From Alphaproteobacteria bacterium (GTDB taxonomy: Bacteria; Pseudomonadota; Alphaproteobacteria; SHVV01), in assembly GCA_965261735.1 (NCBI GenBank), contig OZ253470.1:3776001-3840000 (forward strand): 64,000 nt of DNA, given 5' to 3'. Made by a program: the position numbers and the translations under genes. Below are positions 24,252 through 30,747 of this stretch, piece after piece (the stretch's first letter is position 1; each line of letters opens with the position of its first letter). Under the pieces are notes generated by a model. It saw only the letters and a list, made by a program, of their open reading frames with translations, was not told the DNA's origin and ran no database searches.

Positions 24252-24317
24252 TTAAGAGTCGGTTTCGAAAGTCATGCGGCTCGGGCCAATCTGCGGACGA
24301 GGAGCATGACGGAGGCG

Positions 24318-24417
24318 ATCGCGGGCGACACCTCTGCTCCAACCTATGCCGAGCTTTACTCGGGAGAGTGGTGGCACCCTACATGTAGCGGTCATGGGCG
24401 TTAACCGGATAGGCAAG
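24318..24417 (+). mobile_element. IS1595 type A right-end fragment
   Basis: Matches the last ~100 bp of other copies, including the IR. Confidence 0.9.
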
Positions 24418-24485
24418 GTTTGAACCTCCATCCGAAGGGGTAATAAGTCACCAGCACCAATACCCCAGCCAGCGTAAACGTTGTC

Positions 24486-24840
24486 GTGCGCAAGGCCAAG
24501 ACGCTTCGCTTGTATTCGCTTGACGCAGTCACACCTTCGCGGTCACGGGCGGCTGGACGGGGACGGCTCGCCGACGAAAGCGATCGTGAACTCGTGCTGG
24601 ATTGGTTTCGGGACTTCGCTGAGACAGTCGGCTTGCCCGCGCATCAGCGCGAAGCAATCCGCGACGAGGCGGCGGCGTTTCTGGAAGCCGGGACCGTCTA
24701 TGTCTGGGAGGACCGTGGCGACTGCCGCGCCATGGTGTCCCACACACCCGCGGGATTGGCGCCCGGGCGGATTCGTGCGGTGTACGCACCGCCGGGTTCT
24801 CGTGGGCACGGCTACGCGAGCGCGTGCGTGTGTTACGTCT
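24486..24840 (+). pseudogene. GNAT acetyltransferase fragment
   Basis: RIRAVYAPPGSRGHGYASA acetyl-CoA motif A; cut by IS1595 sequence. Confidence 0.75.
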
Positions 24841-24843
24841 GCC

Positions 24844-25811
24844 GCCGATGATGCGGCCTGCGCCGCCTACCTGGAGAAAGCCCGCTGGGGAGACGGCTTT
24901 GCCTGCCCGCACTGCGGCACGGCGGGAGAGCCGTTCCACTTTGAAAACCGCCCTGGCGTCCTGCGCTGCCGCAAGTGCCGCCAGAACACCGGGCTGACGG
25001 TGGGAACAGTGATGGAGCGTAGCCACACTCCGCTGGAACGTCTGGTTCTGGGCCGCTTATCTGGTCGCCAGTCAGACGCCCGGCATGTCCGCCGTGCAGT
25101 TTCAGCGGCAACTTGGTCTTTCGCGCTACGAGACGGCCTTTCAAATTCTCCACAAGCTCCGCTCGGGCATGGTGCGGCCCAACCAAGACAGGATCGGTGG
25201 ACAGCCCAAGAACCATGTTGAGGTGGACGAAACCTGGGTTGGCGGGCGAACGCGTGGGGAAGGCCGTGGTGTTCACCACAAGGTTCCCGTCTCCTGTGCC
25301 ATCGAGGTGCGTCATCGAAAGCCGGGCACCAAGCTCGACAACCGGAAAGACGGACGCTATGCCGGACGCGTTCGGCTCGCCGTCGTGCTCGACCGTAGCG
25401 CCGAGTCGCTCTGTGGGTTCGTCGAGAGCACCGTCGCGCCGCGATCGCTGATCGTTACTGACGATTGGAGCGGCTATGCTGGCCTCGGTAAGCGCGGCTA
25501 TGAGCACTTCGCTGTTGCCGAGTGTGATGATCCAGAGGTTGCCGAGCAATACCTGCCGATCATCCATCTGGTTTTCGCCAACCTGAAGACGTGGCTGATC
25601 GGTATCCACCACGGCGTTAGCCACCAGCACCTACAAGCCTACCTCAACGAGTTCACCTTCCGCTTCAACAGGCGGTTCTACCCGTTCAACGCCTTCCGCT
25701 CATTGCTCGGCATCGCGGGCGACACCTCTGCTCCAACCTATGCCGAGCTTTACTCGGGAGAGTGGTGGCACCCTACATGTAGCAGTCATGGGCGTTAACC
25801 GGATAGGAAAG
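24844..25811 (+). mobile_element. IS1595 type A copy lacking left end, +1 frameshift near 25035
   Basis: Begins inside the gene at DDAACAAYL; right IR AACCGGATAGGAAAG. Confidence 0.9.
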
Positions 25812-25881
25812 CATCGTTCATCGTCCAAAGGGTTGGAGCAGGCGCCCGTTCCAGTAAACGATGCATGAAGACTGTCGAGGC

Positions 25882-25938
25882 TGTTGTTAAGTGTGGAAAA
25901 TTGCCCCCCTATTGGGGGTGATCGGCGTCCAAAATTGG
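25882..25938 (+). mobile_element. Probable IS21-family end stub
   Basis: TGTTGTTAAGTGTGGAAAATTGCCCCC...ATCGGCGTCCAAAATTG resembles IS21 repeated terminal motifs. Confidence 0.5.
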
Positions 25939-25984
25939 ATCTGTCGCGATCTCGATGCTGTTAGTGGCCTATGCACGCGAGATG

Positions 25985-26119
25985 CCGGCGAACGGAGGCC
26001 AGATCGACGATCTGAAGGCCTCCCAGCGCCAGATGCAGGGATGCGCCGATCTGGATGTGCTCAGCGTCCGCCTTGTCGCTACTGTCCGAAGCCGCCGTCA
26101 TCGAGATTGAGTCAGACCC
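25985..26119 (+). mobile_element. ISL3-family 3' remnant
   Basis: GQIDDLKASQRQMQGCADLDVLSVRL resembles the ISL3 C-terminus EGQINRLK..KRQMYGRA..DLL..RL; end ...GATTGAGTCAGACCC. Confidence 0.55.
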
Positions 26120-26332
26120 AATATTCCACGCCGATCAACACCCGAGCCGCTGCGCTGGCCGAGTGGAGGCAACTTGCAGCATAGTGGTCCTCAACTGAAG
26201 GTTCTGCAGGTCCGAGCCCAGTTTGTCTGATGGTATGGACGCCCCCTACGGCTTCACGATGAGCCATACTGGAGTGTGTTGAACAACCCAGACAGAGGGA
26301 GCGTCCACGATGGATATTACGACAATTGGGTT

Positions 26333-27873
26333 CGCGATTATCAACTTGACACGTCACGCCTCAATCTCCATATGCAGGGGACAGGAGGAAATAATGACGA
26401 CTTTCTACGATTTTCAGCAGCAGTTTCCCGATGACGAGGCGTGCCTTCACCACATAATGGTGAAGCGTTACGGCGGCACCGAGATTGACTGCCCGAAGTG
26501 CGGGGCGCATGGGAAGTTCTACCGCCTGGCACGTGATCGCGCGTATCTCTGCCAGCACTGCAAACACCACATTTATCCGTGCGCAGGCACATTCATGCAC
26601 CGCACGCATCTGCCGCTTCACAAGTGGTTCTACGCCATAGTCCTGTTCACCACATCGCGCCACGGCGTCCCCGCGAAGGAACTGGAGCGCCAACTTGACG
26701 TGTCCTATCCCACGGCTTGGCGCATGGGCCATTTGATCCGCAAGCACATGGCTAATACTGACGGAGAGTGGCCGCTGGACGGCGATATTGAAGCCGACGA
26801 GACCTATGTTGGTGGCCGTACGACCGGTGGCAAGCGCGGTCGCGGCGCTCTGAACAAGACCGTGGTGTTCGGGATGCTGGAGCGCGACGGCGACGTGATG
26901 GCGAACGTTGTCCCGAACGTTCGAAAGCGGACTTTGCAGGCGTTTATCTCCGAGAACGTCGAGCCGGGTAGCACCGTTCATACTGACGAACTCAAGTCTT
27001 ACAGCGGATTGGCGACGATTGGGTATACGCACCAGACCGTCAACCACAGCGCGGGCCAGTACGCGCGCAGCTCTAGCCATGTGAACTCGATTGAGGGCTT
27101 TTGGGCGCGGTTGAAGCTGTCGATTCGCGGGACGCACGTTCATGTGTCCGGGAAGCACCTTCAGAAGTATGTGAAGGAGTTTGAGTATCGCTATAACCGC
27201 CGGAAGCGGCCTGGAACGATGTTTGGCGATCTGGTGGCCCGCTTCTAAGCATCCGGTCCAAGAGCGCATCGAAGCGTTGCCATGCGATCTCGGGCGGATA
27301 GGCATTGTCTTTATTCACCGCCCGCCTCCGATTGCATCTTTCCCCATAGGCGCCGAGCGCCGCGTATGTTCCGAACTCTCGCTTCAGCACCAAGGCGGAC
27401 GAGAAATCTGTGCCAGCCCGCAGTGATCCCCTTCCCTGTCACAGGTGGATGGGGAATACGTAATCCGTCTAAAGCTCTCGCTAGTTTGCGAACGTTTTCC
27501 TCATCACGCCCTTCTATTTCTACCTGCCCAATTCGGCCGGGGTTCACATACCATTCAAGACTGACCCGCACGCTGGTGAATTCATCGGTCATACCTCCCA
27601 AGCGATTGGATGGGCGGAAAAGCTGGTGCAGATGCCAGCTCATATAAATGAACGCCACACTGAACATGGCAGTGAAGGCGGCATATTCCGGTGTGCTCAA
27701 CTCCTTCAAGCCTCCGCCCCAAATCCATGAGACGACGCTCCATACGAGACCTCCGAAGAACAACAACCAGCCCAGAAGCCGCACCACGTACAGGGCCTTG
27801 CCCAGGAGAATCTTGCTCTGGTCCATGCCCGAAGCGTACTCGCCCGCCGTGACGTGTCAAGTTGATAATCGCG
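26333..27873 (+). mobile_element. IS1595-family element (type B) with passenger gene; transposase 26394-27248
   Basis: 26-bp IR CGCGATTATCAACTTGACACGTCACG; 8-bp TSD ATTGGGTT at 26325-26332 and 27874-27881; CPKC, EADETY, HTDE and NSIEGFW motifs. Confidence 0.95.
27311..27826 (-). CDS. IS passenger: two-TM membrane protein of unknown function
   Basis: 171 aa ORF inside the IS1595 IRs, convergent with the transposase, with two hydrophobic N-terminal segments. Confidence 0.65.
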   Translation of the reverse strand: MDQSKILLGKALYVVRLLGWLLFFGGLVWSVVSWIWGGGLKELSTPEYAAFTAMFSVAFIYMSWHLHQLFRPSNRLGGMTDEFTSVRVSLEWYVNPGRIGQVEIEGRDEENVRKLARALDGLRIPHPPVTGKGITAGWHRFLVRLGAEARVRNIRGARRLWGKMQSEAGGE

Positions 27874-28878
27874 ATTGGGTTTGATCTGGCAAAGACGGTG
27901 TTCCAGGTTCACGGTGCTGATGGTGAGGGACGACCGGTACTACGGCGGAAGCTGCGCCGCGGGAAGGTGCTGGCGTTCTTCGCCGGATTGCCATCCTGTC
28001 TTGTCGGTATGGAAGCCTGTGCCTCTGCGCACTATTGGGCTCGGGAACTGCAAGCACACGGGCACAAAGTTCAGCTGATTCCGCCTCAATACGTTCGTCC
28101 CTTCGTCAAAACGAATAAGAACGACGCAGCGGATGCGGAAGCGATCTGTGAGGCAGTGACGCGTCCGACGATGCGCTTTGCACCGGCGAAAAGCGCCGAG
28201 CAGCAGTCGGTTCTGATGCTGCACCGGGCCCGAGAGCTGTTGGTCCGTCAACGCACGATGGTGATCAATGCGCTGCGCGGCCACTGTGCGGAGTTCGGAC
28301 TGATCGTCGCTCAGGGGGCGTCGAAGGTGGAGGAACTGGTTGCCATCATCGAAGATCCCGGCGATGTGCGACTGCCGCCTCTGGCACGCGAGGCGCTTGG
28401 CTCTCTGGTTGAGCAGCTCCGCTCTGCTCAGGCCCGGATCAAGCAGCTGGAGGCGACACTTATGGCATGGCACCGCTCCAACGAGGCGAGCCGCCGGCTT
28501 GCGACGATCCCCGGCGTCGGTGTCATCACCGCGACGGCGCTGGTCGCGACGATCGGAGATGGCGCGCAGTTTCGCTCGGGCCGGCAGCTCTCGGCCTGGC
28601 TCGGTCTCGTGCCCCGACAACACTCGAGTGGCGGCAAGGACAGGCTGGGGCGGATCTCGAAGCGCGGGGATGGCTATATCAGGCGCTTGCTCGTGCATGG
28701 TGCGCGAAGCGTGCTGCGCTGGCGCCGCGCCAAGCCGGGCACGGGGCCTGGCTGGACCGACCGGCTCCTGGCGCGGCGGCCGACAAACGTGGTGCTGGTC
28801 GCCATGGCCAATAAGGCAGCCCGTGTCGCCTGGGCACTGCTCAGGTACGAGCGTATCTACCGACCGACACCGGCATAG

Positions 28879-29115
28879 CCAGCTGGCAAACCGGGATCAA
28901 ATTGCGAGGGTGACGACGATTTGATGGCGAAACAGGGTTCCACCCGAGATCGGCCAAACCCGAGGCATTGTCCGAGCATCAAGCTCGTTAGTCTGACTGG
29001 GCGTCGATCTTTCGGATTCCATCAGGGCCAGCGGTCAGCGTACCGCAGCGAAAAGGCCGGATACATGACTGCAAGCTCTACCGCCGATTCAAATCAGTTT
29101 TCCCCTTGCAACACC
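28879..29115 (+). ncRNA. Bridge RNA/seekRNA-encoding region of the IS1111 element (exact ends unknown)
   Basis: Guide segments GGCATTGTC (28964-72) and TTAGTCTGA (28988-96) match the target; CCATCA (29019-24) and ATACATGA (29061-68) match the donor junction; each pair brackets a hairpin. Confidence 0.85.
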
Positions 29116-29146
29116 GGGGGCGTCCATACATGACAATGCCCCGCCT

Positions 29147-29650
29147 CTACTCCACTTGCCCCGACGCCGTGATTTTGGCGGCGTTGTTGGGGGATTGCTC
29201 GATCTTGCGGACGACGTCCATGCCCTCGACGACATGGCCGAAGACGACATGCTTGCCGTCCAGCCAGGGCGTCGGCACAGTGGTAATGAAGAATTGCGAG
29301 CCATTGGTGCCCGGCCCGGAATTGGCCATTGAGAGCAGGCCCGGCCGGTCGTGGATGAGCGTGAATTTCTCGTCCTCGAACCGCGCCCCGTAGATCGACT
29401 TGCCGCCACGCCCGTCGCCGTTCGTGAAATCTCCGCCCTGGATCATGAAATCGGGAATCACGCGATGGAAGCGGGAGCCCGCATAGCCGAAGCCCGGCTC
29501 GCCGGTCGCGAGCTGGCGGAAGTTCTCGGCCGTCTTCGGCACGATGTCGTGGCGCAACTCCAGCACGATGCGTGCGGCCGGCTGGTCGTCGATCGCGATA
29601 TCGAAATAGATCTGCGGGTTTTTTTCCTGGGTGTCAGCCACGGCGAGTCC
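29147..29650 (-). CDS. Cyclophilin-type peptidyl-prolyl isomerase (native 5' end probably replaced)
   Basis: [41 protein letters not shown] and [10 protein letters not shown]. Confidence 0.9.
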
Positions 29651-29729
29651 CCCGGGGGTGCCGAGGCCGAAAACGAACGCCGCGGCAATGTATGTCACCC
29701 ATTGACGCACCGCGCTCCGCGCGCGCTCC

Positions 29730-29787
29730 ATCTTCTCCTTGGCCGGAAGTGTTGGCGATCTTCTCCTTGGCCGAAAGTGTTGGCGAT
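29730..29787. repeat. 28-bp tandem duplication
   Basis: atcttctccttggccg(g/a)aagtgttggcg x2; frameshifts the ORF that starts at 29825. Confidence 0.8.
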
Positions 29788-30059
29788 GTGGTTGTGTCTG
29801 GAGTTCCGTCGTCTTTGGCGTCCATGTCGTTTCATTATCCTTTTGCAAGAGTCGATGTCTGACGATCTCTACTATCCGCTTGACTATCATTTGTGTGATC
29901 TGAAGGTCAAAGGCGCCGCTTCGGATCCTTGGTATTGGAAACGCCGAGAACGATTCAGCCGGGATTTCCAATGTAGCACCGTTCAGCTTCGGCGGGCTCG
30001 ACGCCGACGGCCCGCCCGGCATCGCTGCGGAGGGCCACCGGCGGGCGCTCACCGGGCTG

Positions 30060-30747
30060 CTGCCGGCGGTGCGCGCCATCGCCGCCGGCCTCGCCGCCCA
30101 CTTTGTGCCGGGCACGCCGGTCTACGGCCGGCCGCTCCCGGATATCGATGCGCTGCTGATGCGCCAGGACCTCGCCGGGTCCTACGCGCGCGTGCTCGAC
30201 GACGCACTCGCCCGCGCCGCCACGGAAGAGCGCCAGGCGCTCGCCCGCGTGGTTGCCGAGGACGCCAGGGAAGCGAGCTGGATGGCGGTCGCCGGTTCTT
30301 CAACACCATTGCCCATCGCGCCGGCCTGTTCCAGGCCGCCGCCCACAACGTCCCCGCCGTGGCCCTGCCGACCCCCAGTCTTGCCGAATGGGCGCCGGCG
30401 GCGGATGCTGCCGTCAAGGGCGTGGCCGCCCAGCTCGCGCGCTCGCCCCATTACCATCCGATGCTGCTCTCCGCCGCGACCTCCGGCGCCGGCGCCCTGC
30501 CGTCGGCGGACGGAGATGGCGGCGGCATGGTCTCGGGCCTGCTGGAGTTCATCGACCTCGATAGCGTCATCGTCGCCGACAGCTACCGGCTCCGGCCTTT
30601 TCGAGTCCATCCCCTTCATCGGCAAGGGGCTCGATGTCTTCGAGTCCGCCTGGCAGGTCTCCGACGCCCTGGTCTCGACCCTGCTCGGCATCCTGATATT
30701 CGCCGGCGCCGTGCTGGCCTACGTACTGCCGGCGCTGCCCTTCATCC
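30060..30747 (+). pseudogene. DotA/TraY-like type IVB secretion membrane protein fragment
   Basis: SWM...FFNTIA and LIFAGAVLAYVLPALPFI recall DotA/TraY motifs; multiple frameshifts; cut by IS1595. Confidence 0.6.

Follow-up and report, generated by a model that had tools for sequence, protein, structure and literature searches.

An IS1111-type insertion sequence with a candidate target-reading RNA in its 3′ non-coding end

The 64,000-nucleotide (nt) stretch of an alphaproteobacterial genome studied here, called the window throughout, is C1:3776001-3840000, where C1 is the single 5.03-Mb contig to which all genome coordinates refer. Its positions 26231-29133 on the + strand are one copy of an insertion sequence, of which 28879-29133 is the non-coding tail. 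The reading that best accounts for it, and to which we would give a probability of roughly 85%, is that this is a copy of an IS1111-type element whose DEDD recombinase is aimed by a non-coding RNA of the 255-nt 3′ end. Comparison of sequences establishes how the element is built and what in it is conserved, and shows that the stems covary and that the guides change in step with the flanks, the ends and the core. In the scheme proposed, stem-loop 1 would form an internal loop carrying two target guides that overlap on the core where strands are exchanged, and a second module would flank stem-loop 2, its segment at 29016-24 directed to the left end of the element and that at 29061-68 to the right end. 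One RNA would then hold the circularised donor and the target together, by analogy with a bridge RNA. It would bind the recombinase and pair with DNA, having been made, probably, by cutting from the transposase transcript or from a promoter at the circle junction.

Such an arrangement was described for IS1111 elements in 2024 (Siddiquee et al., PMC11187229; Durrant et al., PMC11208160), and the NCBI family model NF033542 already calls proteins of this kind RNA-guided. The mechanism having been known since 2024, what is offered here is confirmation and cataloguing, not discovery. Why then dwell on it? The target of an RNA-guided recombinase proves to be readable straight from raw sequence, and the reading holds under a family-wide test. 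An uncharacterised, abundant lineage with a TG core and a clear, predicted two-module RNA is added, and its natural insertions record the mismatch tolerance of each target half. There is practical value, too, in a single genome with 39 such RNA genes, which belong to five or more paralogous elements that differ in their guides. As to the mechanism itself, the only feature that might extend it is the helix that covers the 5′ donor segment.

Target guides and the RNA around them

The original prediction, made from the letters of the window, had picked out strings in the tail as guides to the target and to the element's own joined ends, and a direct check found every string that it named to be present where it was placed. 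Its two target guides stand beyond chance: GGCATTGTC matches at 9/9 positions and TTAGTCTGA at 8/9. The latter is identical, with one mismatch in the window, to the top strand of the left target half and so would pair with the bottom strand of that half. How often would shuffled letters do as well by accident? The best matches within 28879-29115 to the four expected 9-mers are 9, 8, 8 and 8 of 9, and these are singly reached in 10, 199, 404 and 384 of 20,000 mononucleotide shuffles of that interval. Both target matches together are reached in 0/20,000, as are all four.

Relatives permit a comparison of another kind. A relative is encoded by 573 of 599 candidate stretches, and the best 80 loci were kept; in the fetched loci the junctions were located from the subterminal inverted repeats, and guides were compared both with their own flanks and with those of other elements. 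For 30 elements the left match is 4.63/7 with own flanks against 1.78 with others', and the longest right run 6.03 against 3.15. A model-based alignment, of which 91 of the 92 rows were processed (L013, an intact duplicate, being left out), supplied 68 elements with both junctions, after 23 rows had been dropped for want of a right junction (9) or a left arm (7), as partial matches (4) or on account of short flanks (3). There the left match is 4.53/7 against 1.85 and the longest right run 5.49 against 2.98. Shuffling the assignment of flanks reached the observed sums in 0/20,000 trials in each comparison, whether of 30 or of 68 elements. It had been put forward that homologues whose flanks change with no matching change at 28964-72 and 28988-96 would speak against the guides; no such pattern is present among relatives with mapped junctions, and in the 68 elements the guides follow the flanks. 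Individual cases among close relatives, where the 3′ guide differs by one or two letters, are instructive. In a variant lineage (L018, L019 and L020) TTAATCTG replaces TTAGTCTG, and the flank of L019 reads exactly TTAATCTG, while L021, the guide of which is TTAATGTG, is inserted in exactly that sequence. Left matches are poor, at 2/7, in L024, L031, L052 and L067.

The same lesson can be drawn within the one genome, which also holds paralogous IS1111-type families, designated B (13 copies, 51% protein identity), C1 (4 copies, the name being shared with the contig), C2 and C3. Their tails align with the tail considered here, and their guides read their own, different flanks: CCGAACG and TAACCG against flanks AAC-CG and TTCGG in family B, and CGTGGTACA and GCAAAAATG against flanks GCAAAA-ATG and TACCACG in family C1.

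Is what lies between and around the guides an RNA with a shape of its own? Alignment of 38 tails led to a consensus of 19 pairs, 12 of them with compensatory changes, and from it, together with the apical hairpin, was built the covariance model of homologous elements that had been proposed as a check (R1; 136 positions, 24 pairs). It has a full-length + strand match behind the gene in 80/80 loci and in the loci of the element's own genome (92 matches), and its sole match in the window is at 28937-29072 (106.2 bits, E 5.6e-30). In the alignment fitted to R1, 90.5% of cells are standard pairs, against 29.8-42.5% when the partners are slid by 1-3 columns; changes on both sides are found in 21/24 pairs, and 0/500 shuffles reach any of five measures. 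MAFFT with RNAalifold, applied to 50 sequences with 50-nt flanks and unfitted to the model, recovered the same helices. Within stem-loop 1, AGATCG (28947-52) and CGATCT (29005-10) close the hairpin CGAGC/GCTCG (28973-87); all pairs of the outer and inner stems have compensatory changes, and pairs of the apical hairpin have 5, 21 and 6 double changes (50 sequences, unfitted alignment). In stem-loop 2, helices 5 and 6 are paired in 99.7% and 99.0% of cells, with double changes in 7/9 pairs. The hairpin, its closing stem and the GGCC/GCGGT stem, all three of which had been drawn from the window's letters, are borne out by covariation in relatives and on that evidence are real, conserved RNA helices.

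Not every candidate helix fared so well. A hairpin at 28935-45 that looked conserved by eye is only 29.5% paired as aligned, and an unconstrained search for hairpins in the target loop gave no discrimination (mean stem 5.61 bp against 4.99 bp in shuffled sequence). RNAalifold, given the 50-nt flanks, yielded no consensus closing helix for the whole RNA, and because of this the long-range pairing of the single-sequence fold is unsupported.

In the genome at large R1 matches 39 places, which represent a minimum of five paralogous elements (A, B, C1, C2 and C3), each with its own guides. Four of the matches are without transposase homology within 1.5 kb upstream (C1:4368741, 3098830, 670544 and 2960519), and at least one of the four, that at C1:3098830, is a copy split by another insertion.

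Natural insertions in the genome show what has been accepted as a target. There are ten left and nine right junctions, all in one orientation; the right-end rows number ten, nine of which are element-to-flank junctions, while in the tenth the element is followed by part of a second copy. At 10/10 left junctions TGA closes the flank. To the right of the element, the 7 nt are CAATGCC in 5/9 junctions and a one-position variant of it in 4/9. On the left, the 9 nt differ from the 3′ guide TTAGTCTGA by no mismatch at two junctions, by one at four (the window's own among them), by three at two, by four at one and by five at one. Because of these counts the guide can be said to correspond to the consensus target, not merely to the flank that happens to be in the window. 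The right target half is held much more tightly than the left. The original prediction that the insertion tolerated one guide mismatch is true for the window, but it understates the latitude, which extends to 5/9 among the ten left junctions.

The donor side, the core and competing readings

The second module was proposed to read the element's own ends, and here the evidence differs between its two segments. For the 3′ donor guide, ATACATGA in the window, the right end was located from the subterminal repeat alone, which left 57 of 87 rows with exactly one candidate, 30 being dropped. Among those 57 elements it agrees with its own right end at 7/7 positions in 47, at 6/7 in 9 and at 1/7 in 1; with the ends of other elements the mean is 4.97, and 0/20,000 shuffles reach the observed value. 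This guide is thus strongly supported by sequence comparison. For the 5′ donor segment, the match that had been noted as CCATCA is present and is longer than noted, since ATTCCATCA (29016-24) matches the left junction at 8/9. Its agreement is 5.38 with own left ends and 4.61 with those of others, a difference reached in 0/20,000 shuffles.

However, CCATCA (29019-24) has another partner. With a conserved TGATGG at 28922-27, 97 nt upstream, it would form a helix that is 90.6% paired in a MAFFT alignment unfitted to any model, with 3/6 pairs changed on both sides. Two columns of that alignment, followed through 40 elements, help to apportion the constraint. The base in column 173 can pair with the element's own left end in 70%, with others' ends in 42% and with the upstream RNA in 80%. 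For column 172, just outside the helix, the corresponding figures are 75%, 54% and 21%. Six elements whose left end is ATGT have A in column 173, a base that suits the DNA and disrupts the RNA helix. In families B and C1, bringing the 5′ donor segment into register with the core on DNA takes a bulge of one base. On these comparisons the segment can serve both as a DNA guide and as a strand of an RNA helix. Of the claim that the donor ends are read, the part that concerns the 3′ guide is the better supported, as it follows its own right end, and the role of CCATCA is less certain.

The core had been given as (T)GA. TGA is indeed common to both junctions (26228-30 and 29131-33), but by comparison across the family the core is TG and the A is coincidental. 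With elements aligned on their subterminal repeats, the exchanged dinucleotide precedes TGGA by 6 nt on the left and follows TCCA by 4 nt on the right. Most elements have TG there, family B has CG, and AG or AA occurs elsewhere; the dinucleotide is identical in the 3′ target and 3′ donor guides in 65/68 elements, the CG, AG and AA variants included. From such alignments the core is best read as the dinucleotide TG, not TGA. The A that follows it does double duty, opening both the left end (ATGG... in nearly all relatives) and the right target half, which is why TGA was seen.

Could the target module alone do the guiding? In such a strict seekRNA, CCAUCA would be a structural strand of the helix that closes the target domain, the protein would recognise the ends via their subterminal repeats, and excision would use the target guide on the flanks. 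We regard this as unlikely, though it is the rival that survives best. It would make ready sense of the covarying helix 28922-27/29019-24, seen in an unfitted alignment, and of the bulge needed in families B and C1. It also has experiment to draw on: an 82-nt ISEc11 seekRNA, shorter than both modules, sufficed to move a mini-IS at 42%, re-aiming required that the donor flanks be changed too, and the authors suggest that end recognition differs between the two families (PMC11187229). Set against these are the 3′ donor guide, which follows its own right end, core included, with 47/57 at 7/7, and the agreement of the core between the two loops. To them may be added column 172, which prefers its own left end and has little to do with the upstream RNA, and the six ATGT-end elements in which fit to the DNA is kept at the expense of the helix.

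A further thought about the same helix concedes it both partners. UGAUGG-CCAUCA might be a built-in mimic of the donor, keeping the donor side closed until the joined ends of the circle displace it. Were this true, the helix would be a gate, controlling either the order in which partners bind or the direction that recombination takes, and no such gate is described for IS1111-type elements in the passages covered. We hold the idea to be quite improbable.

That the matches are incidental, or that the region is a small protein or a protein-binding site and the recombinase alone picks the site, is scarcely credible: an open reading frame (ORF) of 70 aa at 28921-29133 does span the region in the window, 51/88 related regions are open for at least 70 codons in some frame, and the RNA is putative, known here from sequence alone, but the open frames have no common phase (23 phase combinations at three anchor columns, with inter-anchor lengths in all nine classes modulo 3), compensatory changes affect 21/24 base pairs, guides co-vary with flanks, and the window's matches were reached in 0/20,000 shuffles. 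Judged across the relatives, the ORF is not conserved as a frame.

Several considerations nevertheless weigh against the RNA-guided reading. Some insertions have 3-5 mismatches in 9, so either the pairing of the left half is loose or other routes exist. The single-sequence fold beats shuffles only moderately (-95.2 kcal/mol, z = -2.62; 3/200 as good), and cmscan of 26000-29400 with E up to 10 placed no Rfam 15 family in the non-coding end, its lone match in that interval being an unrelated and weak ceN40 (E 3.5, 26584-26637, - strand). What is read on the donor is less certain than what is read on the target, because CCATCA also sits in a covarying RNA-RNA helix, and an RNA reading of the donor is not established for the IS1111 type, as the sufficiency of the 82-nt ISEc11 RNA illustrates. 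As to expression, the + strand of 27882-29133 has no sigma-70-like promoter, in keeping with published work in which the RNA is seen as a piece processed out of a longer transcript. The joined ends would give a weak promoter, TTGCAA-17-CATGAT (8/12), which the same rule did not find in families B and C1. RNA libraries were consulted as the Logan contigs of 20 runs, of which four from four studies (X1, X5, X11 and X13) were compared with 26100-29300. Metatranscriptome contigs cover the transposase gene and the non-coding end, and no circle-junction contig is present in the four runs; such contigs carry no small-RNA, end or strand information and cannot exclude DNA, so they are evidence neither way. 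Finally, the window copy is itself unable to make transposase, because another insertion splits the gene at codon 8, and it could at most be moved in trans, both its ends and its RNA gene being identical to those of intact copies.

The element, its copies and the DNA that it enters

Intact copies elsewhere in the genome, such as that at C1:1963849-1965202, are 1354 bp long, with the two halves of the transposase gene continuous. The limits 26231-29133 are fixed because other copies in the same genome share these ends. BLAST of the 102-nt left end against the genome gave nine full-length matches and one of 62 nt, all ten beginning at the same base after a flank that ends in TGA, so that the element starts TGGTATGG at 10/10 left junctions; the nine element-to-flank right junctions all have the terminus CATACATGA. 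BLAST of the right end found the 255-nt tail to be identical in eight copies (one of them of 254 nt), with further tails at 99.6% (one), at 92.6% (one) and truncated (two). The subterminal inverted repeats, 26233-46 and 29116-29, are 14 nt long and 100% complementary, and they are set in from the termini by 2 nt on the left and by 4 nt on the right. An unusual case is at C1:2942633-2944364 (L005 and L012), where a full copy minus its last base runs directly into a partial one, the first base of which corresponds to position 872 in the query of 1252 nt and to 974 in the element; this tandem or nested arrangement does not resemble guided insertion.

To what group does the element belong? The original prediction had it of IS1111 type, and Pfam, NCBIfam, the subterminal repeats, the lengths of the ends and the motif GLVPRQHSSG concur. 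The open frame 27862-28878 matches PF01548 (6.6e-14) and PF02371 (3.3e-28). The protein of the intact copies, beginning MDITTIGFDLAK..., has 339 aa and scores 348.8 bits against NF033542, 'IS110 family RNA-guided transposase' (cut-off 140). The transposase as rebuilt from 26310-26332 and 27882-28878, the route originally suggested, agrees with the intact copies in giving 339 aa. In its C-terminal domain the protein shows homology to the transposases of IS621 and ISCro4 (E about 4e-11), and GLVPRQHSSG is invariant across six aligned paralogues. For the IS1111 group a transposase of 330-350 aa with the motif GL-P----S(T)G (PMC11187229) and subterminal inverted repeats of 7-17 bp (PMC11208160) have been given. 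The repeats here are within that range, the longer non-coding region is the one downstream of the transposase gene (255 against 79 nt), and an uninterrupted look-alike of the target exists at C1:434726, insertion being specific for site and orientation and having no long target duplication. Repeat, end lengths, protein length and motif therefore place the element in the IS1111 group as those two papers define it.

By plasmid records and exact-sequence look-up the element appears to be an uncatalogued member of that type: the nearest plasmid records are only 65-68% identical in DNA, and the look-up returned no informative name. Among the best 80 of the 573 relatives, the nearest are in two alphaproteobacterial metagenome-assembled genomes (96-97% protein identity), with one from Sneathiella at 77%. 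The 90%-identity protein cluster has 1159 members, nearly all metagenomic, and the RNA-library contigs place intact relatives in marine-sediment and sponge samples.

Table 1. Coordinates of the features discussed (window positions unless a contig position is given).
Feature	Position	Strand	Remarks
Left target half, with shared core	26222..26230	+	TTTGTCTGA; core TG at 26228-29
Left non-coding end	26231..26309	+	79 nt; holds left subterminal inverted repeat 26233-26246
Transposase, 5′ fragment	26310..26332	+	codons 1-7 and a further 2 nt; in intact copies joined directly to the part from 27882
IS1595-family insertion sequence	26333..27873	+	1541 bp, complete; splits transposase gene at codon 8
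Transposase, 3′ part	27882..28878	+	codon 8 to stop; DEDD/RuvC-like and C-terminal Tnp domain with GLVPRQHSSG
3′ non-coding end	28879..29133	+	255 nt; putative seekRNA/bridge RNA gene
Upstream TGATGG	28922..28927	+	identical to donor's left junction; predicted to pair with CCATCA 29019-24
Stem-loop 1, target module	28947..29010	+	outer stem 28947-54/29003-10; inner 28959-61/28999-29001; apical hairpin 28973-87
5′ target guide	28964..28972	+	GGCATTGTC; exact reverse complement of 29132-40
3′ target guide	28988..28996	+	TTAGTCTGA; 8/9 against left flank TTTGTCTGA at 26222-30
5′ donor segment	29016..29024	+	ATTCCATCA; complementary to core and left end, 8/9; contains CCATCA 29019-24
Stem-loop 2	29026..29058	+	GGCC (29026-29/29055-58) around GCGGT/ACCGC (29031-35/29042-46)
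3′ donor guide	29061..29068	+	ATACATGA; identical to element's last 8 nt (29126-33)
Right subterminal inverted repeat and right terminus	29116..29133	+	repeat 29116-29; core TG 29131-32
Right target half	29134..29140	+	CAATGCC
Places of the sequence with the target at its tip	26144-26230 plus 29134-29140; C1:434726, 4286647, 4339610, 418212, 4454913

The insertion that splits the transposase gene is an IS1595-family element with perfect 26-nt terminal inverted repeats, a transposase gene at 26394-27248 (PF12762, 8e-46; PF12760) and an 8-bp target duplication, ATTGGGTT, at 26325-32 and 27874-81. Contigs of runs X1 and X13 join across its site, skipping 1549 nt. Behind its transposase gene and on the opposite strand is an ORF of 171 aa (27311-27826, - strand) with no match to a Pfam family, perhaps a passenger gene, perhaps no more than a frame left open by chance where G+C content is high.

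What kind of DNA does the element enter? Its left flanks belong to repeat families, and its right flanks are unique beyond CAATGCC. A conserved sequence of 55-95 nt is common to 5/10 left flanks, that of the window included, and the target is at its outer tip, in at least six places in the genome. Conservation of the repeats stops 7 bp to the right of the insertion point. Within four mismatches of the consensus target there are 22 genomic sites, 15 of which are at the tips of three repeat families, a count judged by eye from shared left flanks. One left flank falls within the end of a 4.3-kb element (C1:281095-285390) bounded by inverted repeats some 70 nt long, and one target repeat family adjoins an IS6-type transposase (PF13610) at C1:393845. 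From these alignments it seems that the element seeks out repeated and probably mobile sequences, entering them at their outer tip, 7 bp short of the end. In one metatranscriptome contig, of run X5, a terminus of the ...GTTAACGTGACAATGCC kind lies immediately before 28999, just past the 3′ target guide; it looks as though, in the sample concerned, an element whose tip is of the targeted kind directly adjoins the RNA gene.

Owners for the repeats were sought. No partner inverted repeat is present within 3.5 kb of any of the ten left flanks. The three long ORFs of C1:281095-285390 have no match in Pfam or NCBIfam, and a 601-nt piece that includes its right terminus matched no plasmid record. An IS256-type transposase 220 nt inside one flank was considered and set aside, as it is without a matching second end. 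For the window's repeat an ISL3 remnant was considered likewise, and there homology stops about 90 nt before the insertion point. That remnant, at 25997-26140, resembles the last 96 nt of an ISL3 transposase gene with 46 nt downstream (69% to a Roseomonas plasmid), and the three small ORFs at the ISL3-like stretch match nothing in Pfam. It belongs to a patchwork of insertion-sequence remnants that occupies the DNA left of the element (24300-26143) and in which IS1595-like transposase fragments repeat the same C-terminal stretch at about 24300-24400 and 25700-25800. To the right of the insertion, a gene on the - strand (29147-30115) ends 14 nt from the element; judged by a motif in its translation, it is probably a cyclophilin-type peptidyl-prolyl isomerase.

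Comparison with known systems

The homing to repeat tips recalls IS4321 and IS5075, IS1111-type elements which Partridge and Hall are said to have reported in 2003 as inserting, with specificity for site and orientation, in the terminal repeats of mobile elements. The difference is that the elements entered in the present genome are not of Tn21 type. ISPpu9 and ISPpu10 (Pares-Guillen et al. 2025, PMC12288879) also belong to the IS110/IS1111 family and are present as many genomic copies in repeated sequences, with extra small-RNA gene copies away from the transposase gene and a dependence on a conserved dinucleotide on both sides; unlike the present element, ISPpu9 has its bridge RNA upstream of the gene, and it carries the extra regulatory small RNAs Asr9 and Ssr9.

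With IS621 (PMC11208160; structures 8wt6 and others) the likeness is one of logic, the RNA being, in the scheme proposed here too, bispecific with one guide per strand in each loop, and of the C-terminal recombinase domain, which is homologous, whereas similarity in the catalytic domain is too weak to score. The IS621 RNA, moreover, is in the left end upstream of the gene, with the order of its guides reversed, its core is CT where that here is TG, and its subterminal repeats have 2-3 bp where those here have 14 (PMC11208160).

Among the closest are ISEc11, ISPa11, ISKpn4 and ISPst6 (PMC11187229). The target here is of a different sequence, left TTAGTC-TG and right ACAATGCC; the second module here matches the element's own ends, donor matches not being discussed in the sections of that paper covered here; and the present element is known from its sequence. 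In other respects the correspondence is extensive. Here as there, the transposase has about 339 aa and carries PF01548, PF02371 and the motif GL-P----S/T-G, inverted repeats stand in subterminal position, and a long non-coding region follows the gene; ISEc11, too, is reported to insert after TG (review table, PMC13604230). Their RNAs have two short matches to the target, that to the top strand being 5′ of that to the bottom strand and the two overlapping at the insertion point, and the order of the guides in the present tail is the one published for IS1111-type seekRNAs (PMC11187229).

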